A DNA stretch of 60,222 nucleotides, taken from positions 1 to 60,222 of IMG/VR virus record IMGVR_UViG_3300042898_005595; one strand, written 5' to 3'. Of the stretch, positions 25,256 through 58,268 are shown one piece after another. Origin of the DNA: a virus. Taxonomy: Duplodnaviria > Caudoviricetes. Numbering within the stretch: position 1 is the stretch's first letter; the number at the start of each line of letters is the position of its first letter. Made by a program: the position numbers and the translations under genes. The notes below the pieces were generated by a model that ran no database searches, was not told where the DNA came from, and worked only from the letters and a program-made list of their open reading frames with translations.

Positions 25256-25774
25256 ATGAAAAGATTTTCAACAGTACAAAAAGAATCTAAAGTTAGAAAA
25301 ATAAATGAGCAAGAATTAACTCTACCTCAAAATACAGAGATTACTAAACAAGAACAAACAGAACCTCAAGGACAGGAACAAGAACAAACTGGAGAATCTA
25401 CACCTGTTAAATTCTTTTCAAAGTTATTTGAAGCTAGACAAATGGCACACATTTTCCATTTACAAGTTAAAGCAGAAATGGGATCAGGTTGGGAACACGA
25501 CGCACTTAAAGATTTTTATGATGGTATTTTAGAATTTGCGGATGATTTGATAGAAACTTATCAAGGACAATATGGAATTGTCGAAGGATATGAGATTATT
25601 GATCCATCAGCAACTGGTCAAATGAAATCAATAGAATATATAAAACAAACTGTTGATTATATAAGATCTGAAAGAAAAGCAATTAAAGAAGAAGATACAC
25701 ATCTTCACAATGTAATTGATGAGATTATAGCTCTGTTTTATAAAACAATTTATAAATTAACTAACTTAAAGTAA
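25256..25774 (+). CDS. Ferritin/Dps-like protein (DUF5856-like)
   Basis: HIFHLQ..EHDALKDFYD..DDLIETYQG..DEI..YKLTNL. Confidence 0.7.
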   Translation: MKRFSTVQKESKVRKINEQELTLPQNTEITKQEQTEPQGQEQEQTGESTPVKFFSKLFEARQMAHIFHLQVKAEMGSGWEHDALKDFYDGILEFADDLIETYQGQYGIVEGYEIIDPSATGQMKSIEYIKQTVDYIRSERKAIKEEDTHLHNVIDEIIALFYKTIYKLTNLK

Positions 25775-25991
25775 CATTAAAATCCTCGATATTCTCGAGG
25801 ATTTTTTTTATCTTTTTAATTTTAGGATTTATCATTGTCTGTATGTTTGTGGAAGAATATCTACTTGAAATTGACATTGCAGGATTGAAATTAGATTCTA
25901 TAATTATTGCTGGTTTATCCACGATTATATATGGTACCCAAACATAACCCGGATTTAAATTGCTACCTTTTTTACCAATTAATTGACTCAT
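25761..25991 (-). CDS. Mini-protein resembling the C-terminal segment of T4-type major capsid protein
   Basis: PGYVWVPYI..NFNPAMSISSRYS, compared with recalled gp23 AGIYYAPYV..NFQPVMGFKTRYG. Confidence 0.6.
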   Translation of the reverse strand: MSQLIGKKGSNLNPGYVWVPYIIVDKPAIIIESNFNPAMSISSRYSSTNIQTMINPKIKKIKKILENIEDFNVTLS

Positions 25992-25994
25992 TAA

Positions 25995-26300
25995 TTAGTA
26001 TATGTATTTACGACCTGATTTGTTGTAATCTTCCAAAGATAAAATTATATTATCCAATTTATCATAAGCATCAATTAATGATCCTCTAACCAATTGTAAA
26101 TTTGAAACAGAATCATCTATTTGATCATTCTTTGACTTAGTTTTATTTTGAAAGTTACCCAACTCATTAATATATGAGTCAATATTTTCAACCTTCTGAT
26201 TCAAGAATGTCACCATCTGTTGTAAGTCTTCGATTATATCATTTGTTCTATCACCAGATATGTCGGGAATTTCATTTTCAAAAAACTTTTTAATTCTCAT
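25995..26300 (-). CDS. Coiled-coil protein with CTS-like N-terminus
   Basis: Likely start MRIKKFFENE at 26300. Confidence 0.6.
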   Translation of the reverse strand: MRIKKFFENEIPDISGDRTNDIIEDLQQMVTFLNQKVENIDSYINELGNFQNKTKSKNDQIDDSVSNLQLVRGSLIDAYDKLDNIILSLEDYNKSGRKYIY

Positions 26301-26316
26301 ATTTGAATTTACAATT

Positions 26317-26330
26317 TTAATATATATTAA
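26317..26330. promoter_or_regulatory. Palindromic late-promoter-like element between divergent genes
   Basis: TTAATATATATTAA; the AATATATA motif recurs before many genes. Confidence 0.55.
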
Positions 26331-26334
26331 GTAT

Positions 26335-27015
26335 ATGAAATCAAAAAACAAATTAATACTAGAATTCTCTGAATTTAATCTACAAAGAATGAGTCCAGAC
26401 TCAGCGAGAGCATCAGTACATGTTGATGATCCTAGCTTATCAATCAATGCCTTTGATAAACATGAAGATACTATTAGACAAGCAATGTCTCAAATTGGTC
26501 AAATAAGTAAGGCTCTTCAACACACAACATCATATAGATCTTTAAAATCTAAGATATCATTAAGTGAGCAAGATTTACAAGGTTTAACAATTATTAAAAT
26601 TGTTAAAGACATCGGTGTTAATTATGATATTTATATCAAATTTAAAATATCTGATGAAGAATATTGGGGAGTTATTAAGAGTATTAACTTTGAACCTGAA
26701 GTTAGATCCGAAGTATTCAAAGATGAAGAATTATTACAAACCAAAGAATGGAATATTAAGACTAAAGGTCTTATACTAAAATCAATAAAATCTTGGCTTA
26801 AACCACAGTTTGGTTTTTTTAAATTAATTAAAGATGAGATTCAATGTTTTTCAAGCATAAGTGGAAAACTTCTAATTCTACCAAAAGATTCTGTAATAGA
26901 AGTATTAAAATCCTACGATGATAAAATCATTTTTAAATTTAAAGATGATCAATACACAATAACTGGAGATAATTTCTTTTATTTTAACTGGTGGTTTGAA
27001 CCTGTCAAGGATTAA
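26335..27015 (+). CDS. Hypothetical protein
   Basis: Likely start MKSKNKLILEFSEFN. Confidence 0.6.
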   Translation: MKSKNKLILEFSEFNLQRMSPDSARASVHVDDPSLSINAFDKHEDTIRQAMSQIGQISKALQHTTSYRSLKSKISLSEQDLQGLTIIKIVKDIGVNYDIYIKFKISDEEYWGVIKSINFEPEVRSEVFKDEELLQTKEWNIKTKGLILKSIKSWLKPQFGFFKLIKDEIQCFSSISGKLLILPKDSVIEVLKSYDDKIIFKFKDDQYTITGDNFFYFNWWFEPVKD

Positions 27016-28547
27016 GAACCCACACCAGTATTAATTACAGCAGTGAAAGATACCGTAGAATGTCCAGATGTTAATTGAAATGCTTGTTTAAACTTAACAG
27101 TATTAGCAACTCCTACATCAAAATAACCAGAACCTATGGATCCGGCAGAACCACCTAAACTTCTCAACATAGCCAAACTAATACCACTAGTACCGGAAAA
27201 TGGAGGATCTGTTGAATTTTGACCTGTTATAACACCACTTGAATTAACAGCATAAGATGCAATTAGTTTATTTGTTTTAAATCCTTTAGGTGAAGGAAGA
27301 GCGGCAGTGAATGTCGCCTCTATACTGAAATAACAATTACTAGGAACTGTTATACTACCAACCTCTAGAGTACCAAATCCGGAAATAAAATTAGATTTTG
27401 TACCATATATAGTTCTGTATCCACCATTTGAATTTAATGTTGGAAAATCCACACCATTTGAACCAGAGTAAATAGTAAAAGTATTCCTATCTATTTTATG
27501 AAAGTAATTACCATTTGTAAAACCAAACAAAAATGAATTATTATTAGTTCTTGATTGAAATGTAGGATAACCAAATGAACTAACACCAACTAAAAACCCA
27601 TTAGCAGCTCCAGTACCAGTAATTGAGCCAGAAGTAAATTGTATATAAGATGCGACTCCACTTCCACTATCAAGATGTAACTTATTTTGTGGAACAATAA
27701 GTGAGCCTGCCGCTCCACCCAACAAAAGCCCAGTTGATGTTAATCTTGCTCTTTGTGTTCCTTGTATAGAAAATCCAATTTGATGAAAAGCTGGATGAAA
27801 AATACCTGTATTATCATCATTATACCAAGCTATATCAGGACCATTGTTGGCTGAGGCAGCGGCTGTTGAAAAAGTATTCTGTGATCTTAGAAATAAAGAA
27901 GTTGTAGGAACTGTAGTATTTCCACTTAAAATTAGATTTTTAAATAAATAAGCCCAACCTGTACCACTTTGAATTTGAAATGCAAGATTATCATCATTAC
28001 CTGAATTAATAGCTGGAATACCAACACCAGCACTCCTAGTAAGAAAGTCTATATTTCCAGAATCTGAAAATCTTATAGCACCAGAACCTACGCCTGGAGT
28101 AAAGGATTTGTTTGTTCCATCATTATAGAAATTGTAAGCAAGTAAAGTAGATGTTCCCTTATGTATAACAAAAGGTTGTGATAGTCCGGTATCTGAATTT
28201 ATCTGTAACACTGCTTGTGGAGAAGATGTATTGATACCAACATTTCCCTTATTAATACTTGAACCAACTGTATAATATATACCAGATGATGTAAGTCCGG
28301 TTGATGATGACCATCTGGTCATATAATTTGTTTGACCAGTACCATTGATATCAGCAACTACCCAATCACCCGATGGTGAAATATTTGGATTCCAAACATA
28401 TGTGATTCTATTGGATGTATCAAATACTCTTAATCCATCATATTTGAATTGTATAGCTCCTCTAGCGGTAGATCCACTAGCAACTATTCTAGAATCGATT
28501 GGTAATGCTACATTTACTTTAAATTGGTCTGCTATATTTATTGGCAT
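27012..28547 (-). CDS. Tail fiber-like structural protein
   Basis: Gly/Ser/Thr-rich; GNVGINTSSPQAVLQI, DDNTGIF..IGFS, PQNKLHL motifs. Confidence 0.7.
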   Translation of the reverse strand: MPINIADQFKVNVALPIDSRIVASGSTARGAIQFKYDGLRVFDTSNRITYVWNPNISPSGDWVVADINGTGQTNYMTRWSSSTGLTSSGIYYTVGSSINKGNVGINTSSPQAVLQINSDTGLSQPFVIHKGTSTLLAYNFYNDGTNKSFTPGVGSGAIRFSDSGNIDFLTRSAGVGIPAINSGNDDNLAFQIQSGTGWAYLFKNLILSGNTTVPTTSLFLRSQNTFSTAAASANNGPDIAWYNDDNTGIFHPAFHQIGFSIQGTQRARLTSTGLLLGGAAGSLIVPQNKLHLDSGSGVASYIQFTSGSITGTGAANGFLVGVSSFGYPTFQSRTNNNSFLFGFTNGNYFHKIDRNTFTIYSGSNGVDFPTLNSNGGYRTIYGTKSNFISGFGTLEVGSITVPSNCYFSIEATFTAALPSPKGFKTNKLIASYAVNSSGVITGQNSTDPPFSGTSGISLAMLRSLGGSAGSIGSGYFDVGVANTVKFKQAFQLTSGHSTVSFTAVINTGVGS

Positions 28548-28549
28548 AA

Positions 28550-30136
28550 TTAGAAATTAAATTTATAATCTTGAGAAGTTGGCATAGTTGATAACTGTGT
28601 CTTCTTATATATGTTATATGGATGGCTAAGCCATCTTCCAAATGGATCAGATATATCAACATTTTGAGAATATGTCCAAGAAGCTCCTACACCACTCAAA
28701 GATTCGGAAAATCCATTACCATCGAGAATTTCAGACAACAATCCATAGTGTGATGGATACATAAAATACAAATACTTAGGAGTAGTTGGATTCGAAAGAG
28801 GAATAGATTGACTACCATAGTTATTAATAATCTTATTATAATCAGTTCCGAAAAGTGTGTTCATATCTCCTGATGTTAAAGGATGATTAACTATATCAAA
28901 ACTATAAATATATGGATAAACAAACTCAATAGTTTGACTAGCTGTAAAAATATAGGTCCCATCACTTGGTACAACCGAGAAAGTAAATAAACCAGATTGA
29001 GTATTTCCACTGATAGCTGCAGAAGGTAAATTATAGGTATAACTTATATTATTACTAGTGATTAATCCTGGACCACTAAGTACTAAACCGGTTCCATCAT
29101 CAACTGCGAAGGCACCATTTGGTCGTTGAGCTCTTAAATACGTACTTGTAATATCATTTGTTCTCTTTATAACTGAGTAAGAAATATAAACGGGTGTATT
29201 ACTAATATGATTTCTTTCAAATGTTCTATTTTGAAACAATGTTGTTGGCGATGCTCCTGCCGCTGTTATATTCATTAATGCGAATGGTCCCAATGTAGGA
29301 TAAAGTATTTGATCGAAGAGTAATGAGAATGCAAGACTACTAAATGTTGTACCGACTGTTACACCACCAATACTTTGTACTATAGGATCTGGGTTTGTGT
29401 ATTCTAATTCGTGCCCATTTAGAGTAGTTGGAGATCCTAAAATTGTGGTTGTACTTCCTGTTGATCCTAACTGACCACCAAGACTCGTATAAGTTCTCAA
29501 CTCTAAGTAATTAGGAGAACCATTACCTCTCATAACCAAGAATAGGTCATTCCCATTAGAAGCTAAAGGTGATGCTATAGAAGCAGCAACTTGAGCAGTA
29601 GATGGCCAATATAAATCATTAATTACAACACTAGCTGAAGAACCACTTTCAATAGTTATTGTACCATAAGTTGCTGGATTTATTAAATTAAGTGATATAT
29701 AAGGATTACCACCAGAAACTTGAGTAGATTGAATATAAGGTGCAAATCCAAATAATGATGTATCAGTACCAGCCAAAATACTCATTTTAAAATCTTGAGG
29801 CGATGTTGGATCTGATTTGGTATTATAAAGAAAAATATCAGTATCACTAGTTAATAGTGATGATGACATTATATTAGAACCAGATATTTGTTTTTTACCA
29901 AAAAATATCTTTTTATCCTTTATCTCATCTCTTGAAAATCCAATGTGTTCAACACCATCTACAGTTACATATTTAAATACTGTACTTTCCCAAGCTGAGA
30001 AAACAGCATCACGAACATCACGAGGTGTAATTTCTTTAGCAGTATTATCTGGAAGTAATTGTAAAACATCTTGTAATGCCGTTTTATTCTGAGCATAATA
30101 TGTTGTTGCTGGATATTCACTAAATGTATAAGCCAT
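28550..30136 (-). CDS. Virion structural protein (tail-associated)
   Basis: LPDNTAKEITPRDVRDA start, Ser/Thr-rich beta content, YLYFMYP C-terminus. Confidence 0.6.
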   Translation of the reverse strand: MAYTFSEYPATTYYAQNKTALQDVLQLLPDNTAKEITPRDVRDAVFSAWESTVFKYVTVDGVEHIGFSRDEIKDKKIFFGKKQISGSNIMSSSLLTSDTDIFLYNTKSDPTSPQDFKMSILAGTDTSLFGFAPYIQSTQVSGGNPYISLNLINPATYGTITIESGSSASVVINDLYWPSTAQVAASIASPLASNGNDLFLVMRGNGSPNYLELRTYTSLGGQLGSTGSTTTILGSPTTLNGHELEYTNPDPIVQSIGGVTVGTTFSSLAFSLLFDQILYPTLGPFALMNITAAGASPTTLFQNRTFERNHISNTPVYISYSVIKRTNDITSTYLRAQRPNGAFAVDDGTGLVLSGPGLITSNNISYTYNLPSAAISGNTQSGLFTFSVVPSDGTYIFTASQTIEFVYPYIYSFDIVNHPLTSGDMNTLFGTDYNKIINNYGSQSIPLSNPTTPKYLYFMYPSHYGLLSEILDGNGFSESLSGVGASWTYSQNVDISDPFGRWLSHPYNIYKKTQLSTMPTSQDYKFNF

Positions 30137-30179
30137 TTAATTTAAAAAAGTTTTAAGTATATATAAACTTTTTATAATC

Positions 30180-30581
30180 TTATTCGAATAAAAAATCAAT
30201 TTTAATTAGATCCTTAATTTTAGCTGTTTTTAAGCCTAAATTTTCAAAAGATATTTTATCAAAAGGTATTTCATTTTCAATTTCATATAGATCACTCATC
30301 TCTTTAGAGAATTTATCAATATCTTTTAATAGAACAGTATCTGGAATATTCTGACCATTTTCATCCTTAGCTGATATTGGGTTACCATCCTCATCTATTT
30401 GTATCCATTTATTATAGATTTTTTTCTCTAACTTAAGTTTATCTTCAACTATTGGTGATATAAATTTAATAATTCTGGTCAATTTAAAAGCTGCTGAAGC
30501 ATCTATATCTTGGTCTAAAAGGTTATTAATAGATTCAAGAGATTCATTTGATAGTTGTGAGTTTTTTATTTTGAAAGACAT
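30180..30581 (-). CDS. Hypothetical tail-region protein (DUF1617-like)
   Basis: Helical AFKLTRIIK..DEDGNP pattern next to fiber genes. Confidence 0.45.
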   Translation of the reverse strand: MSFKIKNSQLSNESLESINNLLDQDIDASAAFKLTRIIKFISPIVEDKLKLEKKIYNKWIQIDEDGNPISAKDENGQNIPDTVLLKDIDKFSKEMSDLYEIENEIPFDKISFENLGLKTAKIKDLIKIDFLFE

Positions 30582-30597
30582 AAATTATTTTTTCTTT

Positions 30598-31299
30598 TTA
30601 TATATTATTTTCAATTCGTTGTTTGCAATTATCGATTCTAATCTTTGATATTTCATAATATTTCTCATCCCTCTCAACACAGATAAACCTTCTTTCAGTC
30701 TCAATACAAGCAATTGCAGTTGTTGATGTCCCAGCGAATGTATCTAAAACAATATCTTCTTTATTAGAATGTTTAACTATTAAATCTTTAATCAATCCAA
30801 GTGGTTTTTGAGTCGGATGTTCCAATCTCTCCTTGCCATGGCAAAGTGGATAATTATAAATCGCATTATCATATTCCGAATTAAAAATTGCATTTTTATC
30901 TTTAACAAATGTGAAAAAGTATTCAGAACAATTTGATAAATAATTAATTTTTGAATTAACAGGAACTGGATTATTCTTTAACCATTGCCCTACTCTTGGT
31001 TGCTTAAATTTATTCTTTGCTGCAAATTCTTTAATAATTGATGACTTCCAAATGTCATAAAATAGAACTAATGTTCCTCCTTTTCTCAAAACTCTATAAT
31101 ATTCTTTAAATAAAGTATCTAAATCTATTTCAGTGTCCCAATATCCGAAATCAATTGATATTTGATTAAATTTAGATAATTTACCAGAACTAAAACCAGA
31201 TTTTTTTGAAATATCGTAGGGTGGATCCGTAAGTATTAAGTCTATTGAATTATCTTCAATCTTACTTAAATAATTAAAACAATCATCAAAAACTAACAC
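30598..31299 (-). CDS. DNA N6-adenine/N4-cytosine methyltransferase (beta class)
   Basis: DLILTDPPY, HPTQKP, VLDTFAGTSTT. Confidence 0.9.
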   Translation of the reverse strand: MLVFDDCFNYLSKIEDNSIDLILTDPPYDISKKSGFSSGKLSKFNQISIDFGYWDTEIDLDTLFKEYYRVLRKGGTLVLFYDIWKSSIIKEFAAKNKFKQPRVGQWLKNNPVPVNSKINYLSNCSEYFFTFVKDKNAIFNSEYDNAIYNYPLCHGKERLEHPTQKPLGLIKDLIVKHSNKEDIVLDTFAGTSTTAIACIETERRFICVERDEKYYEISKIRIDNCKQRIENNI

Positions 31300-31334
31300 T
31301 TATATAACTTAATTTTAATTATATATACTCTAAC

Positions 31335-32462
31335 ATGAAACTTCTATTAGAATTTAAAGACTATAATGATTTATCTTTTGTAAAAGATAACGTTGAAGAT
31401 TCTATTCTATCAGAAATAGATGAATCTATTAATCCTGTAGTTCATCAGTCATTTATCACTATATCAGATGGTGAAGTAACTTGTAAAGACCTAAAAAGAA
31501 GTGAGTATAGTAGTACTGATTTTGATTTTAAGAGTTATTTAGTATCCTTTAATGAAAGAATGGAAGAGGAAAGTTTTGATAACATATCTCAAAGATTAGA
31601 ATCAATATTATCTATGGAATTTGATGATAAAATAAAGTGTATTGCTTTACAATCATTTCCAATAAATGAGTTTGTTATTTGCAGTGACAATGAATATCAG
31701 ATTTTAAAATGTATTTGTAATTTTGAATATTCTATAGAAGACGAGATATGGGAGATCAAAAATAATCCTTACACATCAGTTATAGATCTAACAACCGATG
31801 ACTTTAATAACTTCAAGAGTCTAACCATATGGATAAGAAAATATCTAAGCAAACTTGGAGTAAATTTAAAATTAAACAGAGAAAATATTGAATCTAATTA
31901 TTTAAATTATAAAATATCAACAAGTTTTTTCTTCAACAGCTCAAGAAATCTAAATGATAGATGGATACAAGATCTAGATTTAATCAAAACAGATGGTAAA
32001 AATAAAACTGATATAAATGTAAGAACTTGGATGAGAGATAATTTACCAATACATTATGATACTCTAAATAATCTCAAAAAGATTGGTGATAAAATAAATT
32101 CAATGAATTTACCATTTCAATTAGACCTAAATTCTGATCCTAATGTGGAGGCAAAAAGATTATTAGATATCATTCGTGAAAAAGTTTTTCCTATTTTCTC
32201 AAATAGTGAGACAGATGATATATCAAATCTATATAAACAATTTGAAAAATTAGAAGAACTTGGAATAGATGCTGAATGGACTCACGAAGGAAACTATTTT
32301 TATTTATTTGATATAAATTATAAAGGAAAACATTATATAGTACATACAAAATATGATGTTAAGAAAAAATTAGTAAAAATTGAAATAAAAGATAAAAATA
32401 TTGAGCAAGAAATACCAATAGAAGATTTTTGTGATACAATATTTCTACTTTTAAGTGAATAA
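31335..32462 (+). CDS. Hypothetical protein with CTS-like N-terminus
   Basis: MKLLLEFKDY. Confidence 0.6.
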   Translation: MKLLLEFKDYNDLSFVKDNVEDSILSEIDESINPVVHQSFITISDGEVTCKDLKRSEYSSTDFDFKSYLVSFNERMEEESFDNISQRLESILSMEFDDKIKCIALQSFPINEFVICSDNEYQILKCICNFEYSIEDEIWEIKNNPYTSVIDLTTDDFNNFKSLTIWIRKYLSKLGVNLKLNRENIESNYLNYKISTSFFFNSSRNLNDRWIQDLDLIKTDGKNKTDINVRTWMRDNLPIHYDTLNNLKKIGDKINSMNLPFQLDLNSDPNVEAKRLLDIIREKVFPIFSNSETDDISNLYKQFEKLEELGIDAEWTHEGNYFYLFDINYKGKHYIVHTKYDVKKKLVKIEIKDKNIEQEIPIEDFCDTIFLLLSE

Positions 32463-32478
32463 AAATTAATTAAAAACA

Positions 32479-33249
32479 ATGAGTTTAACTTCAATAATTA
32501 AGGGAATTTTAAATATCCAAAAAAAAATTGATCTTAAAACCCTACCATCACAGGGAATTTTCTATAATGATGGATTTGAAATCTACATAAAAAAGGCTAA
32601 TCTAGAAGATATAATCGAATACGAATACGATTATGATGAAGAACAACTTGGTTCAGTTATTAGTAAAATAAAAAAAATTGTAGAAAAAAACACTACTATC
32701 ACACCACCAAATACATATAATAGTGTTAAAAGTATTGATGTTATTTTTTTATTTCTTGAAATAGTAAAATTCACAAATAATAAACCAATAAATATTGCTT
32801 TTTTTAACGACCTATTAGCCAAAGAAGAGTATATAAAATTTGAATCTACTAACTTTAACTATTTCCAACTAGACGAGAAAATACTAGAGAAATACGATAG
32901 TAAAACAAAAGAATTTAATTTCGAAGGATTTAAATACTCAGTACCCAGTATAGGAGTTGAGAACTCACTAACACAATTTCTAATATCAAAATCATTATCC
33001 AAAGATTCGGAAGCTTATAATACATATTCATATGATTTTCTATACTTCTTAGGACATAAATCAATTTTAAACTTCGATGAGATTGAAAATCTTATTCAAA
33101 TTTTTAATCACGATATTGATGAACAAGACAGAAAAAAAATTGAAAAAATAGTAAAAAAACTATCAGTAATAGGTAAATACTCACTTAAAAAAGATTCACA
33201 GATTATTGATGTCACTGCTAAAATTAATTTATCTAATATTTGGAAATAA
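32479..33249 (+). CDS. Baseplate hub subunit-like protein (T4 gp26-like)
   Basis: LPSQGIFY, D..FLFL.I. Confidence 0.5.
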   Translation: MSLTSIIKGILNIQKKIDLKTLPSQGIFYNDGFEIYIKKANLEDIIEYEYDYDEEQLGSVISKIKKIVEKNTTITPPNTYNSVKSIDVIFLFLEIVKFTNNKPINIAFFNDLLAKEEYIKFESTNFNYFQLDEKILEKYDSKTKEFNFEGFKYSVPSIGVENSLTQFLISKSLSKDSEAYNTYSYDFLYFLGHKSILNFDEIENLIQIFNHDIDEQDRKKIEKIVKKLSVIGKYSLKKDSQIIDVTAKINLSNIWK

Positions 33250-33267
33250 TTTCTAAATATATAGATT

Positions 33268-34101: not shown

Positions 34102-34110
34102 TGGTAAAAT

Positions 34111-34140
34111 AAAAAACCTCTAATTTCTTAGAGGTTTTTT
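34111..34140. terminator. Bidirectional terminator
   Basis: AAAAAACCTCTAA-TTTC-TTAGAGGTTTTT. Confidence 0.8.
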
Positions 34141-34144
34141 ATTT

Positions 34145-35593
34145 TTAAATTGATATTTCATCAATCATTTCATATAACTTATTCTTATCTGTCTCAAGCC
34201 ACTGCATAATATCAAAAACTTTATCAGAAAATCCAGCCAAAGCAAATACATTTTGTTCTGGAAGTTGCATTGTTCCAAGACCAGATAAATCCCAAGAATA
34301 AACATAAGGATTACAATTGAACTTCTTTTTGTAAAGATTAAATTCAGATGCTGGTGTTGTCTTACCTATCCAACCTTGCATATCTGATAAGATAATTACA
34401 CGATCATATTTCTTATTAGCCTTTAAGAAAATATCTTTAAAGTTTGTTCCACCACCAGAGAAACGGAATCCATTTCTAATAGTAATAATTGAATCCATCG
34501 GATTATATGCCTTGTAATTAGCACTTGTAGCAAATGTCATAACATCACAGTTATTAGCCTTAGCCAACATCGATCCAAATAAAGAAGCTATCTCAGATGG
34601 TCTTCCACTCATAGATCCTGATACATCAAGAACTACTAAAGTATCACCATCAAACTTAGGAACGTTAATTGCAGATATATCTAATGCTTGATGTAATGCA
34701 GTCATTACCATTCTGACATCGGATGATGAACCTAACTTAGAAATCTCTTCATAAGCAGTTGAAAATCTAAATGGAAGAATACGACTTGATTTAATCAACT
34801 TCTCATCAACTAACATATCACACGCAAGTCCAACAAATTGTGGTGCTTGATTAATGATATTTCTCAAGTTTCTAAGAAGTGCAAAATATCCGATCTTTTT
34901 TGTTGTAAGAAGCTCACCCCATGCATCTGATTTTAACTGTGATAATTCCTCACTATTAGATGCATCTTGACCAGCTTTAGATAATTTAGACTCCCAAGTA
35001 TCAGTTGATTTTAAATCACCTAAAACAAGTTTAGAAAGTGCTTCCTTATTTGAAGGAGTTGGAACAGGATGTACTAAATTAACAATGTCAATAAGCTTAA
35101 CTTCTTTATTTTCACTCTTATATTTAGCAAGTTGATAACTATCAAAACGATTAAAAGCTGAAGCAAATCCCTTTTTCAAAGAGTTTGGAAACTTTGGCTT
35201 GATCTTATCTGTTTTATTCTCAAGATAGTAGGACATAATTTCAGTCATATCATCAACACGAACAACTACTTTATCGTAAAAATCTTTTGACCATTCTTGT
35301 CCTGAAACTCTTGATGTTAATTCTCCAGCGAGTGCGTGTGTGATACTTCTCATACCAAACTTATCACGAGCAAATATTGCAGCCTTAGCAGCAAATTTAG
35401 GATCAACTTTATCTAAAATAGTTTTAAGTCTATCTAGTGTGACATTAGATGAACGATAAAATTGATCATCTACGAATGAGTTTAATAAAATAGAAATCAA
35501 TTCTAATTCATGTGATTGAGTGTAAGCCTGACCACCGGCTAAATTAGTGGTTAAAGTCTTTGGTTCTTTTAAAGTTAGGTTAAATTTTGACAT
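34145..35593 (-). CDS. Ro60/Rsr ortholog (TROVE + vWA domains)
   Basis: TNLAGGQAY, FDSYQLAKY, TWESKLS, ALLRNLRN, LPFRF, vWA DVSGSM..GGGT..ILSDMQ. Confidence 0.92.
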   Translation of the reverse strand: MSKFNLTLKEPKTLTTNLAGGQAYTQSHELELISILLNSFVDDQFYRSSNVTLDRLKTILDKVDPKFAAKAAIFARDKFGMRSITHALAGELTSRVSGQEWSKDFYDKVVVRVDDMTEIMSYYLENKTDKIKPKFPNSLKKGFASAFNRFDSYQLAKYKSENKEVKLIDIVNLVHPVPTPSNKEALSKLVLGDLKSTDTWESKLSKAGQDASNSEELSQLKSDAWGELLTTKKIGYFALLRNLRNIINQAPQFVGLACDMLVDEKLIKSSRILPFRFSTAYEEISKLGSSSDVRMVMTALHQALDISAINVPKFDGDTLVVLDVSGSMSGRPSEIASLFGSMLAKANNCDVMTFATSANYKAYNPMDSIITIRNGFRFSGGGTNFKDIFLKANKKYDRVIILSDMQGWIGKTTPASEFNLYKKKFNCNPYVYSWDLSGLGTMQLPEQNVFALAGFSDKVFDIMQWLETDKNKLYEMIDEISI

Positions 35594-35613
35594 AATTAAG
35601 TTTTTATTTTAAT

Positions 35614-35654: not shown

Positions 35655-35662
35655 TATATTAA

Positions 35663-35913: not shown

Positions 35914-35927
35914 CTTATATTAATAGA

Positions 35928-38781: not shown

Positions 38782-39063
38782 TTAATTTTCCTCTTTAGGT
38801 TGTATTCTATTTAAAATTCTTTCTATTTTCTTAATCTTAGTAAATGGGCTTGGAAACCAATAATTATTTGGAAAAGGCGCCGGTGTTTGATATTGATTCC
38901 TTAATTGGTTTAAGTATTTTTCAGCTTCTTCTTTAGACAAATTACCAACAGGTATTTTATATACGATTCTATTGTTAGTTCTACTAATTGTCCAGTTATT
39001 TGGAGAAAGAGGATCAATTGGTTCCTCTTTCTTTTTAAATAAATTTTTAATCCAGTTTATCAT
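38782..39063 (-). CDS. Mini-protein resembling a T4-type portal protein segment
   Basis: RIVYKIPVGNLSKEEAEKYL..NYWFP, compared with recalled gp20 RRVWYVDTGNMP..KA..DYWL. Confidence 0.55.
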   Translation of the reverse strand: MINWIKNLFKKKEEPIDPLSPNNWTISRTNNRIVYKIPVGNLSKEEAEKYLNQLRNQYQTPAPFPNNYWFPSPFTKIKKIERILNRIQPKEEN

Positions 39064-48779: not shown

Positions 48780-48789
48780 TAATTATATA

Positions 48790-49974: not shown

Positions 49975-50042
49975 CTTTTTATATATAAAATCAATAAATC
50001 GATTTATTTTTATTAATATATAAATAAAAATAAATCCATAAT

Positions 50043-50546: not shown

Positions 50547-50559
50547 TAAAAATAAAAAT

Positions 50560-50591
50560 AAAAAAAAACACACTAACTAGTGTGTTTTTTT
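50560..50591 (+). terminator. Intrinsic terminator
   Basis: AAAAAAACACACTA-AC-TAGTGTGTTTTTTT. Confidence 0.75.
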
Positions 50592-50607
50592 ATTTAATAT
50601 ATACCAT

Positions 50608-51333
50608 ATGAGAATAATTAAATTTAATGAGTCTTTATCAAAAGAAGAAATTGATGACATTCTTTTAGATCTTAAAGATGATGGTTACGAAATTGAATCA
50701 ACTATTTTTGGTGGATTTGTTAACATAACTGGTAAAATTCCATCTGTTGAAATAGATAGAATTAAATTTCTTAAAGATATTATTGATTTAAATACTAGAA
50801 TATCATCAATTGGATATGAGCCCATCAATGATATTTTACATGTTTATATGGGAAGGTTAAATGGGCAACCCTATTGTCAATTTATGTTAAAATTCAAAGA
50901 TAATGAGACATCAGCAAATAAAGATGTAAACTCATTTGAAGAGTTTAAAGAATATGTTGAAAAAGCATTAAGTCTCGAGTTCTATGAGTGGGACACAGAA
51001 GTGTATATTCCAGATTTAGAAAATAGACCTCGTTTAAAATTAGATATAAATAAAACCATTAGCTCATCAGGAAATATCCCAGCTGGATTTACAATAGGAT
51101 TTGAAAGAGGAAGTCTAAATGATATAGAAAATAGTATAGACAGAAAAGAACTATCAGAATTAGTAATGACTGATGATGAGTATTACTCTGTAAATTTATG
51201 GTCTGTTCCTGAAAGGGAAAAAGAAAATTATTCAGACCCAGAACTTATAAAAAGAGCCAGGTCTAAACAATTTAAATTTGATAAAAGAGGAATAGAAGCA
51301 GTAGAAAGATGCCTAAAAGCCTTTAAGCGTTAA
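50608..51333 (+). CDS. Hypothetical protein with CTS-like N-terminus
   Basis: MRIIKFNES..EIDDILLDLKD. Confidence 0.65.
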   Translation: MRIIKFNESLSKEEIDDILLDLKDDGYEIESTIFGGFVNITGKIPSVEIDRIKFLKDIIDLNTRISSIGYEPINDILHVYMGRLNGQPYCQFMLKFKDNETSANKDVNSFEEFKEYVEKALSLEFYEWDTEVYIPDLENRPRLKLDINKTISSSGNIPAGFTIGFERGSLNDIENSIDRKELSELVMTDDEYYSVNLWSVPEREKENYSDPELIKRARSKQFKFDKRGIEAVERCLKAFKR

Positions 51334-52990
51334 TTTTAACATTAACCCTTTTAATAGCCTCCTGAAACCAATTTGGGAAAAAGTGACCAGAATATTTTAA
51401 TAAATCTGAAAAAGATCCATCAATTATAATAGTATCAGCATAATCTTCATTTGATCTAACAGCTCTACCAGTCATTTGAATCAATCCAGAAACCGTTTTC
51501 CAAGTATACCAATCAGGATTCATTTTCTGTCTTAACTTATTTTTCTGAGAAGCCAAAGTTGGATAAGGAATTTTAGCGATTACTTGAAATCTTGCTTTAT
51601 CATCATCAAAACTAACACCGGTATCCATACTTGGAGAAACTATAACGGTTGGTTTTTCAGTAGCATAATGTTCCTGTAATACTAAATCCTTATTAGATGA
51701 ATCATGATAAACTAATCGTGGATTTCGAACATCACGAGACACCCAACTTGCTAACTCAAAGGAATTAGTATGTATAATTCCTTTCTTATCAGGATATTTA
51801 TTCAATATCTTCTGAATAAACGGTACATAATTCTTAAAGGTATCTTCTTTTGATTTATAAGACATCTTACCAAGTGGCATATAATAGATTGGTCGATTCT
51901 TAACTGGAAAAGGAGATTCAATTGAATAATAAACAGCCTTATCAACATCCAAACCATTCAATTGACAGAATAAACTCTTATCGAGAATAGTTCCAGACAT
52001 TAGAAAAACCATATCATATTTTGAAAAAACGTACTTATCAAGATAATCAAATGCCCAAATAGGCTCTAGTGATAATTCTTTTTGTTTAGTTTTTTCATTA
52101 TAGTTTGATTCTAATACCCAATTATCAGGATTAGCTTTATATTCATTTAAAAATATTTCAATTTTAGATTGATATTGTTGCAAATCAGTTATAACTTGCA
52201 TTAACTTAAAATCCGAGTTTTTACCTCCCAATACTTTATTAACAGAATTTTCTCTTTTAACAGATTTTGCACTTCTTTTCTCAGCACTTAAAGATCTTTC
52301 AACATCACCAATAGTTGTTCCAATTTCACCTTGTAACTCTTTAAGAAATTCAATATATCCACTAATACTACTAACACTCTTTAGATCCTTAATAATCTTA
52401 GATTCATTAGAAAATTTTAATTTTTTAACAACAGACTCAGTTATTTTAATTGTTATAAAATCTGACATCACATCATCAAAATCATGAGCTTCATCAACAA
52501 TTAACACATTACTGCCTCTAGCATCCATCATCTTAGTCATATATAACTGAAATAGAATATAAAGATAGAAATTGGTCAATGACATTCTACCAGAAACATA
52601 ACCATCTCTAGCTCCAGAGTGTGGACAAAACTCACAAGTTGTTTTATTTAATCTATTGAATTCATTGCCCTGAGCACATGAACAAGCATATTGAGCACAC
52701 TCATAGTTTTCTTTACCTTTTAAATCGTTTATAGATTCATATGTCTCAACATATTGATCTTGTAAAATTTTACTATTTGTAATGACATCAAACTTAGCAT
52801 TACCATTGACATTTTTTAAATACCAATCAGCAATCATCAATGCTAAATGGGATTTTCCGCTCCCGACTGGGAGGTTTAGAAGAAAGAATTTATTTTCTTT
52901 ATTCTTTTTATATTCTGCATCGATAAAATCAATACATTCTTGTTGCTCTTTACGAGGTTGATATTTGAGTAAATCTTTTTTAAGTGACAT
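51323..52990 (-). CDS. DinG/Rad3-like superfamily 2 helicase
   Basis: PRKEQ, LPVGSGKS, Cys cluster, DEAH, MSGT, KIPYP, QMTGRAVR. Confidence 0.85.
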   Translation of the reverse strand: MSLKKDLLKYQPRKEQQECIDFIDAEYKKNKENKFFLLNLPVGSGKSHLALMIADWYLKNVNGNAKFDVITNSKILQDQYVETYESINDLKGKENYECAQYACSCAQGNEFNRLNKTTCEFCPHSGARDGYVSGRMSLTNFYLYILFQLYMTKMMDARGSNVLIVDEAHDFDDVMSDFITIKITESVVKKLKFSNESKIIKDLKSVSSISGYIEFLKELQGEIGTTIGDVERSLSAEKRSAKSVKRENSVNKVLGGKNSDFKLMQVITDLQQYQSKIEIFLNEYKANPDNWVLESNYNEKTKQKELSLEPIWAFDYLDKYVFSKYDMVFLMSGTILDKSLFCQLNGLDVDKAVYYSIESPFPVKNRPIYYMPLGKMSYKSKEDTFKNYVPFIQKILNKYPDKKGIIHTNSFELASWVSRDVRNPRLVYHDSSNKDLVLQEHYATEKPTVIVSPSMDTGVSFDDDKARFQVIAKIPYPTLASQKNKLRQKMNPDWYTWKTVSGLIQMTGRAVRSNEDYADTIIIDGSFSDLLKYSGHFFPNWFQEAIKRVNVKINA

Positions 52991-53013
52991 AATTGTTATA
53001 GGGTATTTTATAA

Positions 53014-54018
53014 TTATAGTTCTAATATTCTCTTTTCAAAAAATTGTGGATAATGTTTTTTTCGAAATGTATAAAATTCACCATCATTCTCACCAACAGC
53101 TGAAGTTTTATTTCTTTTTACTAATTTGTACTTCATATTATCTAACTCAAATTCATCATTAATTTTAAAAATGAATGAATTTTTCAATTCCAAACTTTCT
53201 TGATTTTTAAATTTAAAGATATATTTTCTTGGTTTTTTTATTACTCCTCTACAACATTTGCCAATTATTGATTCAGAACATCCTGTTTCAATAGCAGCAT
53301 CTTTTATTGAGAAAAATTCTTTAATAAACTCACCATCAAGGTTAAATTGTAAAACCGATTTAGAATTTAATTCTTTTGATAATTGTGTCATTTTATCTTG
53401 ATCGACACCAGCATTTCTCCTTTCTCTAATCTTTTGTATAGTCTCCTCGTTATGTTTTTTACCCCACATTGGATGATTCGTTCCAGAAACTCTAAGTGAG
53501 TGTTCTTCCTTTACTTCTTCTGTATGATTTTTTCCGAAAAATGGATTATTTTCTCCTTGATTGATTTTTTTTATATGTTCTCTTTGCTCTTGTGTCATAG
53601 GATTTACAGAATATGCTATAATTTTTTGAGACTTTTTTGTCTCAGATATTTTTCTCTTAGTTTCATCACTATGTGGAGATGTAAGTCTTCCATCTCCACC
53701 ATCAGTCTGATTGACTAAAGGACCCACTTTTAAATCTCTTCGTCCTATTTTTTTTATTACTTCAATCTCCTTCTCTAAAGCCACGTCATTTTCTAAATTT
53801 TCAAATAATTTTATTTTTAGAATCTCGCCTCCAGATTTTTTAATCTTTTTAATTTTATTAACTTTGAATGGACTCTCTCTATCTAGAGATGAAGTTGTGA
53901 TTCTATCACCAGTTCCTTTTCCAATATAAAACGGTTCATAATCAAAATTTAAATCACCATAATTAAAATCACCAGGCTTTGATTTATCAAGAAAGGCATA
54001 AACATAATATTTTTTCAT
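53014..54018 (-). CDS. GIY-YIG homing endonuclease with NUMOD3/NUMOD1-like repeats
   Basis: YYVY..PFYIGKG..R; HSDETKRKIS repeats; VLQFNLDGEFIKEF. Confidence 0.88.
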   Translation of the reverse strand: MKKYYVYAFLDKSKPGDFNYGDLNFDYEPFYIGKGTGDRITTSSLDRESPFKVNKIKKIKKSGGEILKIKLFENLENDVALEKEIEVIKKIGRRDLKVGPLVNQTDGGDGRLTSPHSDETKRKISETKKSQKIIAYSVNPMTQEQREHIKKINQGENNPFFGKNHTEEVKEEHSLRVSGTNHPMWGKKHNEETIQKIRERRNAGVDQDKMTQLSKELNSKSVLQFNLDGEFIKEFFSIKDAAIETGCSESIIGKCCRGVIKKPRKYIFKFKNQESLELKNSFIFKINDEFELDNMKYKLVKRNKTSAVGENDGEFYTFRKKHYPQFFEKRILEL

Positions 54019-54063
54019 ATTCGATTTTTTATTTTATATATAAAAATACTTTATCTCCCTATG

Positions 54064-55605
54064 TCATAATTCCGATTCTAATTGTTTAATTTCATCCATG
54101 ACTGCTTTATATTCTTCTTTCTTCTGCATCATGATTTTTTTATTTGTTTTACGATCTAGATAAACATCTTCAATCATCCTTAGAGTTGGTGACAATCTTT
54201 TTTCAAAAACCACACCATTTATACAAACAACATGTTTATCCAAATCAATCTTTATTCTTTGATTACCATTAAAACAATAATCATCCTCTTCTTCTGTTTT
54301 AACACCAATGAATGTTTCTGGAGCAATATAAAACTGCAACATCGTTGTTGGATATAAACTTGCGAAGTCATAAATTACGCACCATTTATTCATACCAACA
54401 ATTGGATCTTTAACCCACCCACCTGCAATTCCAGATTCTCCACCACGAACAGCATTTTCATCTTTAAACAAAATGATATTCTCCATATCACGGAATCTAT
54501 TTCTCAATACACCCTCTGTAATAGCAAGTGATCCAAGAGCATTATTCATCTGAGAAACAATATCAACTACTCTAATTTTAGCAAGAGCTGAAATAGCAAA
54601 AATAATAGAGATATAATTTCTGGCTTCGTGTATCTTTTGAACCAGAACGGAGTCAACCGCGTTATAATACATAAAAGTTTCAAAATCTTCTTCATAGAGT
54701 TTTTGGAGCGAACCGGTATATTTAATTTTATCCACACCAACCAACTTATTAGAAACAAAGTCTAATGAAGAGCTTTCTTTAACTTTAATTGAAGTATCAC
54801 ATATCTCATATAATTGCATGTAGTCAAATATCATTCTATGAGCGGGTACTTCATATTCAGTAGACCAAACTTTATTTAATCTTTTAGTAAATGATGAAGC
54901 AGCTGGATCAATTTTAATTTGCTTACCATTAATCCATTTGCTTAATTTTCTAGAACGATTTACAAGATATAACCAGTCATAGTTTAGAAAGTTCCAACCA
55001 GTAATAAGCGGCATCTTCGGAACCATTTTATTAAAAAAGTTGTACAACATATCAAATTCATCCTCATATTTAATGTATTTGAATTTATATTCAACTTTTG
55101 ATTTTTCAAAATATTTATTCGTATTATCTAAAATTCGATCCTGCATATCTTGTGGCATATCTTTCAATCCCAAAAGAATTATCTTATCATCATAAACAAC
55201 AGATATAGATAAAACTTGAGTAGAAGCCCCTTCTTTTTTAACTGAACCATCAGCATTCAATATATCGGCAGCTTCTGGAAATCCATCTACGATTTCAGTC
55301 TCAATATCTACAAAGAATATTTTAGGTAAGTTAAATTCAAAAATCTCATCTCTTTCTTTTTCAGGAAGAGCATCTAAGAACTCATAAACCGCATATCTAT
55401 CAGGGTGATTTACATCAATCTGTTTAACATGTTTATTATCCCAAGATTTATAATCTGGATGTCTTTGAGGGTCATTTTCTTCACAAGTAACATACTTTAG
55501 TGGATTTTCCCAATCATAATATTTTAATTTAATTTCGCCGGTTTTATCAACGTAACTTACAACTAATTTCTTCGTATTTACCAAATATTGAGTATCTATC
55601 AGCAC
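54064..55605 (-). CDS. Family B DNA polymerase, N-terminal part (exonuclease plus palm region II)
   Basis: DIET, TGWNF..YD, SLD, YN..D, GGWV..P, YDFASLYP; stops before KxxxNSxYG and YGDTDS. Confidence 0.88.
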   Translation of the reverse strand: MLIDTQYLVNTKKLVVSYVDKTGEIKLKYYDWENPLKYVTCEENDPQRHPDYKSWDNKHVKQIDVNHPDRYAVYEFLDALPEKERDEIFEFNLPKIFFVDIETEIVDGFPEAADILNADGSVKKEGASTQVLSISVVYDDKIILLGLKDMPQDMQDRILDNTNKYFEKSKVEYKFKYIKYEDEFDMLYNFFNKMVPKMPLITGWNFLNYDWLYLVNRSRKLSKWINGKQIKIDPAASSFTKRLNKVWSTEYEVPAHRMIFDYMQLYEICDTSIKVKESSSLDFVSNKLVGVDKIKYTGSLQKLYEEDFETFMYYNAVDSVLVQKIHEARNYISIIFAISALAKIRVVDIVSQMNNALGSLAITEGVLRNRFRDMENIILFKDENAVRGGESGIAGGWVKDPIVGMNKWCVIYDFASLYPTTMLQFYIAPETFIGVKTEEEDDYCFNGNQRIKIDLDKHVVCINGVVFEKRLSPTLRMIEDVYLDRKTNKKIMMQKKEEYKAVMDEIKQLESEL

Positions 55606-55647
55606 TATTTTTAATTATTTTTTTATATACTTTTTTATATATATCTC

Positions 55648-56055
55648 ATGTATATTATTTCAAAATTTGAAAGTTTTTCTAACCAACCAGATATAGAAGA
55701 AATAAAAGATATTTTTCTAGAACTGGTTGATAAATGGGATATGGTATTTGAAGGTGATTCTGGTGCTATTGGATATAAATTTATAGAAAAGAATGATATA
55801 CTATCTTTTCATAAATTTATAATGTTAGGTAAAGAAATAAAAAATATAGAACAAGTTTATTTAGTAATATACATTGATTTGACTGGACTTAATGATTTCT
55901 ATAAAACTGTATATGATTTTAATAAAGATTGTGAGGATTTATTAAAAAGATTTCAGTCCGAATTTAATTGCGAATTATTAACAGCATATGGAAATGAGTA
56001 TTTACAATCTAAAGGTATACCGACATCAAGGTTTATATTCGTTTTTAGTAATTAA
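55648..56055 (+). CDS. Hypothetical protein with CTS-like N-terminus
   Basis: ISKFESF..EIKDIFLEL. Confidence 0.6.
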   Translation: MYIISKFESFSNQPDIEEIKDIFLELVDKWDMVFEGDSGAIGYKFIEKNDILSFHKFIMLGKEIKNIEQVYLVIYIDLTGLNDFYKTVYDFNKDCEDLLKRFQSEFNCELLTAYGNEYLQSKGIPTSRFIFVFSN

Positions 56056-56262
56056 AAATCAAAAAATTGAAAGTTTTTCCATTCTTTCCAATTGTCAAAG
56101 TCATTTAATTTTACCAACTCGTCTTCAATTTCAGAAATCAATTGGTCTCTTCTTTTCTTATAACTTTCAATTGATACATCACTTGAATTTTTCAGTTCAA
56201 TTAATTTAATAGTTTCTTTAAGTTCTTTTATTTTAAATTGTATCATAAAATTTTATTTATTT

Positions 56263-56757
56263 TTAAAAATCACAATCAATATAATTCATGACCTCTAATG
56301 TTCTTTTATTAGTAAAAGTCATATCATCTCTATGATATACCTGTTCTTGATAATGCACAGATCCCTTAAATAAAGTTCTAATAAATGGTATACTCTCACC
56401 AATCTTTATATCTTCTTCATTAACCATTAAGCATAAAACCTTTTTATCATCTTCTGTTAACATCTGAATCTCTGTATAATCTTCGGCATCCTTAAAAGAA
56501 TTTTGCTTACCAAAACATATAAATGTGGTATTTAATTCTTCACCAGATTTATACTTTATAACAAATTCGTCACCATCTTTTATATTAGAAATCTCCTCTT
56601 TTAAATAGAGGCGAATCCAAATATAAACCATTTGTTTTTCAACTTCCGACATTGTTGGTGTCTGACTAACATCATCCGATAAATCATCAGTATCAATACT
56701 CTTAATTTGCTCAACCAATTGGTCGTAAATTGAATATTCTATTTCATCTTCACTCAT
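56263..56757 (-). CDS. Hypothetical protein
   Basis: ORF track. Confidence 0.6.
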   Translation of the reverse strand: MSEDEIEYSIYDQLVEQIKSIDTDDLSDDVSQTPTMSEVEKQMVYIWIRLYLKEEISNIKDGDEFVIKYKSGEELNTTFICFGKQNSFKDAEDYTEIQMLTEDDKKVLCLMVNEEDIKIGESIPFIRTLFKGSVHYQEQVYHRDDMTFTNKRTLEVMNYIDCDF

Positions 56758-56782
56758 ATTATTTAATTATTTTTTAATGTTT

Positions 56783-58075
56783 TTAATTACTTAAAGGGGC
56801 TTTAATTGTTGGATGTGATTGGTAGTTTTCTAATTGAAAATCAATATTATCTAAATGACCGATCATTGATATATCTTCTGATAGTGATTTATAAAAATCA
56901 TCAGTTTTCATATGTTTTAATGTTGGCAATGGAAAAGGAATTCTGGATTTCAAAGGAATTTCGCTCTTATTCAATCTAACCATTTGAATCTCAGGAGGAA
57001 GAGAGTCAAAATCTTCTACTACATCTCTATTTGGCTTAGAATTATGAAACCACCAATCAATTCTTTCTTGATGTGTGAGGTCTACACCAATCTGTTCTTT
57101 TGCTTGTTCAATGTGATTCAAATATAAATGAACATCACCTAAATTACCAATCAATTCATCTGGAATCATATTAACTTCTTTAGCTAATATTTCTAATAAC
57201 AATCCATAAGAAGCAATATTGAAAGGAATTCCCAAAAATAAATCACATGATCTTTGATTCCACATTAGAGAGATTGCTCTGGTTGGTATGTTTTTTTCAT
57301 CTAACACCTCTTTTATTCTATCAGTACCTAAACTTTGCCAATTTACAAACTGAGTATGTTTATCTTCCTCAATCAAATTATATCGTTCTTCCAAACTCAA
57401 CTCTCTTGTATAAACTTGAAATCCATAATGACAAGGTGGCAAAACCATCTCATCAATTTCACCTACATTCCAAGCATTAACCATTAATCGTCTTGAGTCT
57501 GGATTTGTTTTAAGTTCGGAGATTAGGTTTGCGATTTGGTCTATTTGATTCCAAGTAATAATTCTTGTTCCGTTTTCATCCTTTTCACCAATCTTGCCAT
57601 CTTGACCTCTCCATTTTCTCCATTGCTTACCATAAATTGGACCTAAATCACCCCATCTCTCAGCAAAAACATTATTAGTTCTAATTGTATTGATAAATTC
57701 TTCCATAGTATATGCTCTATTAGAAGAACCATTTATTCCATTAATAACAACATCCTCTTTTACATTATCTCTATTAGAAAAAGAATCTCTATTCTTTAAA
57801 TATGATTTATATGCATCACCATCCCAAATATGACAATTATTTTGAACCAAGCTTTGAATATTAGTATCACCACGTAAGAACCATAGTAATTCAGTTATAA
57901 CACCCTTCATATACATTTTCTTAGTAGTAAGTAAAGGAAATCCTTCTGACATTTTATGTCTAATTTGGCGACCAAATACTGAAATTGTTCCAGTTCCAGT
58001 TCTATCTTTTTTTTCAACACCATTATCAAGAATATCTTGAAGCAGTGAGGTATATGTTTTATCTAGGTTGTTCAT
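56783..58075 (-). CDS. thyA: Thymidylate synthase with insertions
   Basis: DRTGTGT, FPLLTTK, ELLWFL, LGPIYGKQWR, SRR, LPPCH, QRSCD, PFNIASY, HLY.NH. Confidence 0.95.
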   Translation of the reverse strand: MNNLDKTYTSLLQDILDNGVEKKDRTGTGTISVFGRQIRHKMSEGFPLLTTKKMYMKGVITELLWFLRGDTNIQSLVQNNCHIWDGDAYKSYLKNRDSFSNRDNVKEDVVINGINGSSNRAYTMEEFINTIRTNNVFAERWGDLGPIYGKQWRKWRGQDGKIGEKDENGTRIITWNQIDQIANLISELKTNPDSRRLMVNAWNVGEIDEMVLPPCHYGFQVYTRELSLEERYNLIEEDKHTQFVNWQSLGTDRIKEVLDEKNIPTRAISLMWNQRSCDLFLGIPFNIASYGLLLEILAKEVNMIPDELIGNLGDVHLYLNHIEQAKEQIGVDLTHQERIDWWFHNSKPNRDVVEDFDSLPPEIQMVRLNKSEIPLKSRIPFPLPTLKHMKTDDFYKSLSEDISMIGHLDNIDFQLENYQSHPTIKAPLSN

Positions 58076-58268
58076 TAAATTTATTTATTTTTTCTAATAT
58101 TTTATTAATTTTATCCTTTTTGAAATCACTGAATAAATTCTTCATAATCTCAGCGTCTATTGATTTAGCCAATTCTTCGGATAACATTGAAGTCAATTCA
58201 CTCTCTGCATCTATTCCATAATGATCTGAGATATTCTTCACATCGTTTTTAGTAATTTGTCCCTTCAT
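58059..58268 (-). CDS. Mini-protein resembling a central segment of T4-type major capsid protein
   Basis: YGIDAESELTSMLSEELAKSIDAEI, compared with recalled gp23 HGMDADAELSGILATEIMLEINRE. Confidence 0.62.
   Translation of the reverse strand: MKGQITKNDVKNISDHYGIDAESELTSMLSEELAKSIDAEIMKNLFSDFKKDKINKILEKINKFNEQPR

Follow-up and report, generated by a model that had tools for sequence, protein, structure and literature searches.

Short genes of a very large T4-related phage lineage encode segments of the capsid and portal proteins with a common C-terminal helix

Why should a phage carry, at a distance from any head genes, small genes that look like pieces of the capsid protein Gp23 and the portal protein Gp20? 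This question is raised by the IMG/VR virus record IMGVR_UViG_3300042898_005595, the whole of which (60,222 bp, approximately 29% G+C, CheckV completeness approximately 23%) is called the window in the present study. A preliminary description of this DNA, which was made from the sequence alone, had pointed to three small open reading frames (ORFs) of 69–93 aa that resembled gp23 and gp20, were located outside any head-gene module, and ended in a similar helix. The three ORFs, designated here as m1, m2, and m3, were confirmed, all on the minus strand, and each combines a capsid- or portal-like segment with a C-terminal helix that is referred to hereafter as the tag:

25761-25991, minus strand: m1, 76 aa, a C-terminal capsid-protein segment, a linker, and the tag (defined from the ORF, Pfam, and hhalign)
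25833-25979, minus strand: capsid-like segment of m1 (aa 5-53; Gp23 model positions 305-354)
25788-25823, minus strand: tag of m1, KIKKIKKILENI (aa 57-68)
38782-39063, minus strand: m2, 93 aa, an N-terminal helix, a portal segment, a linker, and the tag
38884-38994, minus strand: portal-like segment of m2 (aa 24-60; Portal_T4 model positions 198-234)
38803-38838, minus strand: tag of m2, KIKKIERILNRI (aa 76-87)
58059-58268, minus strand: m3, 69 aa, a capsid spine-helix segment and the tag
58128-58235, minus strand: capsid-like segment of m3 (aa 12-47; Gp23 model positions 161-196)
58086-58121, minus strand: tag of m3, KKDKINKILEKI (aa 50-61)

Judging from sequence comparisons, these segments are true homologues of segments of the T4-type capsid protein (m1 and m3) and portal protein (m2). 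The m1 protein matched the Pfam family Gp23 (PF07068) over model positions 305–354 of 376 (E 8.8e-4, 19.2 bits; cut-off 24.4), and m3 matched the same family (E 2.5e-5, 24.3 bits; cut-off 24.4) as well as the major head protein in PHROGs. The m2 protein matched Portal_T4 (PF07230) over positions 198–234 of 433 with a score of 26.1 bits (E 4.4e-6), which exceeds the curated cut-off of 22.9, and it also matched the portal family phrog_213 (E 8.9e-6). When whole families were compared by hhalign, with each E-value referring to one pairwise comparison, m1 and m3 reached probabilities of 94.4% (E 9e-8) and 97.2% (E 3e-11), respectively, against 24 full-length capsid proteins, and m2 reached 93.6% (E 2e-7) against four full-length portals. 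The resemblance to gp23 and gp20 that had been noted in the preliminary description is, thus, borne out by Pfam and by profile–profile probabilities of 93.6–97.2%. In scans of family members one by one, 23 of the 66 m1 relatives and 113 of the 121 m3 relatives matched Gp23 at E ≤ 1e-3, and no other family was matched; precomputed PF07230 matches, counted from a table, were present in 28 of the 109 m2 relatives. The m1 segment aligned without gaps to residues 509–555 of the own capsid protein of a relative, and the alignment of m2 with a relative's own portal protein ran on to a YWFP motif past a 17-residue deletion.

The homology is confined to segments of 36–50 residues, approximately 10–13% of the family models. 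Neither m1 nor m3 is a whole Gp23 subunit, which would cover most of the 376-position model above the cut-off, and m2, matching positions 198–234 only of the 433-position Portal_T4 model, is not a whole portal subunit. A six-frame search of the window found both families at the three mini-gene places only; a full-length capsid or portal gene was absent and, thus, the head module does not lie within the 60-kb fragment. As had been described, the mini-genes are located outside a head-gene module, among genes for nucleotide metabolism and replication (NrdA, NrdB, ThyA, a piece of a family-B DNA polymerase, a helicase, and GIY-YIG homing endonucleases).

Short matches of single sequences, two of which lie below the Pfam cut-off, may be expected if the mini-genes are non-functional debris of structural genes or resemble them by chance in an AT-rich genome. 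Homing endonuclease genes are also present nearby, and tblastn searches of GenBank phages yielded no match for m3 and individually weak matches for m1 and m2; the annotated m1 matches were all capsid proteins of very large phages, and portal or "capsid assembly" genes accounted for 25 of the 30 m2 matches listed (E 0.2–1). Nevertheless, we consider debris or chance to be extremely improbable. With clusters counted at 90% identity, homologues comprised 65 clusters for m1 (50–76 aa), 109 for m2, and 121 for m3, with identities down to approximately 50% and on contigs of up to approximately 640 kb, and these clusters keep the reading frame. The linker varied among the 294 relatives, by in-frame indels only, with almost no variation in the fragment core or in the tag. 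Pairwise dN/dS values, which are rough because they were based on 31–52 synonymous sites in AT-rich DNA, ranged between 0.12 and 0.87 (mostly 0.2–0.5) and were below 1 in all 37 pairs computed. The preliminary description had named, as evidence against its idea, the lack of a significant profile match, or neutral evolution together with a lack of expression (pseudogene debris); a significant match and purifying selection were obtained instead.

The order of genes is similarly fixed, with m2 between nrdA and nrdB, m3 before thyA, and m1 after a gene for a helical protein, and it was kept down to approximately 50% identity, while homing endonuclease genes came and went around the mini-genes. In the window, m2 is located 25 nt upstream of nrdB, and m3 overlaps the stop of the upstream 4HBT thioesterase gene by 4 nt and the start of the downstream thyA by 17 nt. 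The m2 gene adjoined nrdB in six of seven related loci (L007 ended directly after m2), and a GIY-YIG endonuclease gene separated the two in L010. A search of the ESM Atlas returned 30 look-alike clusters of small proteins, of which the three shown were viral, 63–74 aa in length, and annotated as Gp23 on 34–40% of their members. In public data, the families have either no name or an automatically assigned one, such as "hypothetical protein". On the sequence evidence, therefore, m1, m2, and m3 are conserved, selected genes of a very large T4-related phage lineage.

The tag is the feature that unites them. The C-termini of the three proteins read K-I-x-K/R-I-L-x-x-I with lysines before it, 6–8 residues ahead of the stop (5–10 residues across the families). 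The pattern K[IL].[KR]I[LI].[KNRE][IL], when searched among 1000 six-frame ORFs of at least 25 aa in the window, was confined to m1, m2, and m3. Shuffling of residues within ORFs gave a mean of 0.19 matches, with at least three matches anywhere in 1 of 1000 shuffles and three C-terminal matches in small ORFs in 0 of 1000; the similarity of the C-terminal helices noted earlier withstands this comparison, which also argues against chance resemblance. With a tag profile, mini-genes from the window and from its relatives scored 20–35 bits and everything else in 195 kb at most 8 bits, and T4-like control loci amounting to approximately 1.1 Mb contained one internal and no C-terminal match to the pattern. 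The pattern was carried by 279 of the 294 members of the three families. The nearly invariant positions were the columns from K57 to D70 in m1, residues K76, K79, I80, E81, I83, L84, N85, and I87 in m2, and residues K50, K53, N55, I57, L58, E59, K60, and I61 in m3. None of the 20 other small ORFs of the window (three of which overlap tRNA genes) matched a structural family at E ≤ 0.01, which indicates that the tag and the fragment go together. Gene conversion among the tags of the window is spoken against by the tag-coding DNA, which differs among the three genes and places the likeness at the protein level.

AlphaFold2 (AF2) models predicted the tag as a helix in both proteins that were modelled (m2 73–87; m3 48–66, the latter with a predicted local distance difference test [pLDDT] value of approximately 90). 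The m3 model (pLDDT 83) consisted of helices at residues 7–16, 21–45, and 48–66, and the m2 model of helices at 3–9, 44–59, and 73–87 and strands at 24–27 and 32–35, with disorder at 63–72.

Relatives revealed whether the mini-genes replace the head genes. In the genome G001 (134,852 bp), the capsid gene is intact (576 aa) and is accompanied at 44–51 kb by the gene for a T4-type portal protein of 569 aa; m3, m2, and m1 are located at 72, 88, and 102 kb, respectively. G011 has an intact capsid gene and m3. Since G001 holds intact capsid and portal genes beside all three mini-genes, the latter are neither debris nor split genes, and a split capsid gene as a general explanation was rejected on the basis of G001 and G011. 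As a control, four near-complete ordinary T4-like genomes had one Gp23 match each and no mini-genes, and the portal match in three of the four was the full-length portal only.

Tagged fragments of this kind are not limited to the three genes. A fourth one, m4, likewise a segment of the capsid protein, was found in G012 and G009 (Gp23 model positions 222–263; E 1.7e-3 and 2.8e-4), with four representatives of 63–74 aa in a library of 1.84 billion proteins, all four of which had tag-like helix ends. Two other tagged ORFs are weak candidates below significance: a 53-aa ORF beside the m4 counterpart of G009 (m4'), which was the best match to the portal profile (E 0.036) and has a KNILN-type crown motif, and a 51-aa ORF in G010 that resembled the head maturation protease phrog_207 (E 0.012). 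In addition, G009 encodes a larger capsid fragment:

G009 257471-257959 (L131: 17471-17959), minus strand: N-terminal capsid fragment, 163 aa, no terminal tag

This protein consists of the N-terminal approximately 110 capsid residues, an internal insertion with a tag-like RDRKIDSI, and a lysine-rich tail. The G009 contig (312.7 kb) yielded pieces only, namely, the 163-aa fragment, m3', m4', and m1', and neither a capsid nor a portal gene in intact form. A split capsid gene was considered here, too, but is not supported as the general explanation, since the contig breaks off within a region of synteny with G001 and its head module may be located beyond the contig.

The tag of G009 has changed alike in all families, to KIENIF in m1', INKIF in m3', and KIKNIF in m4', and the variant motif was located within 10 residues of the stop in 10 of its 18 occurrences versus 3.5 expected. 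This parallel change in otherwise unrelated proteins suggests one shared receptor that co-evolves with the tag. The small ORFs 240406-240666 and 20617-20763 of G009 also end in the variant tag (KIKRIFE and KIRKIFN, respectively); their N-terminal parts matched no family.

What, then, might these proteins do? We propose, with a probability of roughly 0.4, that they are microprotein-like competitive mimics of head-assembly interfaces that are docked by the tag. The segments correspond to what we take to be the spine helix, the helix–strand of the A domain, and the C-terminal strands of the capsid protein and the strand–helix of the portal wing. We infer binding, a receptor, and an effect on assembly as follows: the fragment part would make native-like contacts at an interface of the full-length capsid or portal protein (subunit–subunit, scaffold, or chaperone) and compete with that protein there, the tag would dock all mini-proteins on one common putative receptor co-evolving with it, and the outcome would be the control or sabotage of prohead assembly, affecting either the timing of the phage's own assembly or that of a co-infecting T4-like rival.

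A mimic of the microprotein type is best supported because of the anatomy of segment and address helix, the coexistence with intact genes, and the existence of published inhibitory fragments. The FragFold report (PMC11831152) describes protein fragments that act as dominant-negative inhibitors. Like those fragments, and like eukaryotic microProteins or small interfering peptides, each mini-protein is one piece of a larger oligomeric protein with the rest of the fold missing, and by analogy its action would be expected to rest on contacts that are native-like yet non-productive. In G001, the mini-proteins are small homologues of parts of larger proteins of the same genome, as in the definition of microProteins. 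In contrast to microProteins, the mini-proteins are phage-borne, appear from their sequences to be aimed at head proteins, represent several pieces of one protein, and share a C-terminal helix. Compared with T4-type Gp23 and Gp20 themselves, they are homologous in core segments, from which neither an HK97 fold nor a portal ring can be built.

Several observations weigh against the proposal of competitive mimics. The profiles of the three families reached no capsid or portal among the sequences of solved structures, and Foldseek searches with the m2 model against PDB and with the m3 model against BFVD returned nothing at E ≤ 0.001. The m2 model, a hairpin and helices, is not compact (pLDDT 64, predicted template modelling score 0.29); with fragments this short and a model of this kind, native-like docking is an assumption. 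The roughness of the dN/dS values stated above is a further point, and the tag, as an amphipathic basic helix, could bind a membrane instead of a protein. The likeness of the fragments to own and foreign proteins is also mixed. The Smith-Waterman score of m3 was 104 against the capsid protein of an ordinary T4-like marine phage versus 63 against that of its own lineage; its residues 1–50 were 42–46% identical to full-length capsid proteins of T4-like contigs, with the shared motif IDAE.ELTSMLSE, and the corresponding capsid helix of the own lineage was conserved between G001 and G011 but unlike m3. The m1 protein was nearer to its own lineage (89 versus 63), and m2 and m4 were about equidistant between own-lineage and T4-like proteins. 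While the likeness of m3 to a T4-like marine capsid protein leans toward the idea of a rival phage as the target, which the preliminary description had put forward beside that of sensor decoys, the other fragments do not show it, and neither "self" nor "rival" fits all four. Simple tracking of the phage's own proteins, therefore, does not account for the fragments.

The main rival to microprotein-like mimicry is immune evasion, in which the fragments would be decoys or sponges: conserved epitopes displayed early would occupy or mis-assemble host sensors, and the tag would cluster them or recruit an inhibitor. A report on STAND/Avs receptors (10.64898/2026.01.04.697583) describes sensors that recognize virion proteins, capsid and portal included, by binding to their conserved core folds. 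The segments that are mimicked rank with the best-conserved regions of the capsid and portal families. The location of the genes among those for nucleotide metabolism and replication, rather than in a head module, also agrees with decoys, as does the divergence of m2 in L006 (69% identity versus 94–96% for the neighbours NrdA and NrdB), which indicates that m2 evolves faster and is compatible with an arms race. We regard decoys as unlikely on balance. According to the same report (10.64898/2026.01.04.697583), the sensors use extended interfaces on whole folds. A piece of 35–50 aa is unlikely to suffice for these, and a mimic of the trigger would be expected to switch the sensor on, not to inhibit it, unless binding occurs without activation. 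Moreover, m3 does not track the capsid protein of its own genome, since G001 and G011 share 79% identity in the capsid protein and 68% in m3, with different helices, and neither a defence gene nor a sensor is known for the host.

The phage protein DSAD1 counters DSR2 by competing with the structural trigger for the sensor. Decoys would share this logic of competing for a sensor of virion proteins; the known competitors are not fragments of the trigger, and no sensor is known here.

A common terminal peptide may also be read as a targeting signal, with the tag directed to the capsid or scaffold and loading the peptides into the prohead as cargo inside the head or as accessories of the scaffold. 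A single short peptide at the terminus is indeed common to otherwise unrelated small proteins, it co-varies within a genome as a peptide–receptor pair would, and the coat-binding C-termini of scaffolds are basic helices. The same arrangement of a short terminal peptide on unrelated proteins is found in the cargo-loading peptides of encapsulins and in the T4 capsid targeting sequence, which is N-terminal and cleaved. However, there is no reason for cargo to consist of pieces of the shell and portal, binding of the tag is putative, and no likeness to a known targeting peptide turned up, although no search was aimed at such likeness. This possibility, thus, seems quite improbable to us.

The composition of the tag brings in the membrane. 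Tags were amphipathic and cationic (hydrophobic moment 0.42–0.65, net charge +2 to +5), as membrane-targeting helices are, a conserved amphipathic N-terminal helix is also present in m2, and T4 head assembly begins at the membrane, so that tethered peptides might bring epitopes of the capsid and portal to the inner membrane and seed or trap head assembly there. However, the mean hydrophobicity of the tags was negative, and such helices usually keep their composition, whereas here eight positions are common to unrelated families and shifted together in one lineage. We consider membrane tethering to have a low probability.

A broader version of competitive mimicry may be put forward tentatively, and we regard it as possible but doubtful. 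Very large phages may have tiled their head-assembly proteins into separately encoded peptides that share a co-evolving address helix and meet on one receptor, in order to poison the assembly of a T4-like rival or to blind host sensors; the pieces so far are three or four from the capsid protein, one or two from the portal, and perhaps one from the head protease. The phage satellite proteins Sid, CpmB, and Ccm redirect the capsid assembly of another element. By analogy, the mini-proteins may be likened to them as small or capsid-like proteins that would interfere with capsid assembly; however, those proteins come from satellites and represent complete scaffolds or complete homologues with an HK97 fold instead of fragments with a tag, and no homology to them was found. 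Literature searches, which took in megaphages but not supplementary files, brought up no published description of such tagged fragment genes. If the mini-proteins act on capsid assembly or on the sensing of capsids, evolution itself would have produced inhibitory fragments of those virion proteins that are conserved best; the mini-proteins would then be a novel class of phage weapons or regulators as well as a ready-made map of the critical interfaces of the HK97-fold capsid and portal. The common co-evolving tag points to a putative hub receptor, and the families, with 65–121 clusters each, are abundant in metagenomes.

Two features adjoin or overlap m1, the former of which is given as context with no functional link claimed:

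25995-26300, minus strand: 101-aa helical protein, directly upstream of m1 with a 3-nt gap
25779-25805, minus strand: G+C-rich hairpin with a perfect 10-bp stem and a 7-nt loop, within the tag codons of m1

The gene for the 101-aa protein preceded m1 at the same position in all five m1-bearing genomes. Its product gave weak coiled-coil-like matches only in Pfam, all below the cut-off, and a predicted complex with m1 scored 0.00 in a run without controls, which is evidence neither way. The convergent gene 25256-25774 has its stop immediately before the hairpin, and RNAfold calculated -16.0 kcal/mol for the final 75 nt of m1, the hairpin included. It was kept in three of four orthologues (window, L105, and G001) and was missing from L106. 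The hairpin looks like a terminator embedded in a coding sequence and may put an additional constraint on the m1 tag.

Regarding expression, the late-promoter motif TATAAATA was not enriched in the window (19 seen versus 31 expected from composition) and, thus, the timing of expression is not readable from TATAAATA. Two metatranscriptome runs contained 6–8% of the sampled words of 36.0–46.0 kb, which is no evidence on expression.

Some minor observations were made on the remainder of the window. Thirteen tRNA genes form two clusters at 868-7433 on the minus strand, and the small ORFs 840-1085, 1142-1447, and 6680-6961, which overlap tRNA genes, are unlikely to be genuine genes. The product of 34145-35593 is TROVE/Ro60-like and contains a vWA domain; an Rfam scan of the window at gathering thresholds detected no Y RNA. 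The family-B DNA polymerase ORF (53014-55605) stops after 513 aa, comprising the exonuclease and the beginning of the polymerase domain, and has the gene for a GIY-YIG/NUMOD homing endonuclease as its neighbour; a split polymerase is possible. The thymidylate synthase at 56783-58075 is 430 aa in length, with approximately 100 extra residues within the Pfam match and a long C-terminal part, and G001 has a 278-aa ThyA-like protein at this place. In two relatives, nrdA is cut in two by a GIY-YIG endonuclease gene (L005, 3139-6693; L009, 4645-8195), and the neighbourhoods of nrdA–nrdB and thyA are hot spots for homing endonucleases.

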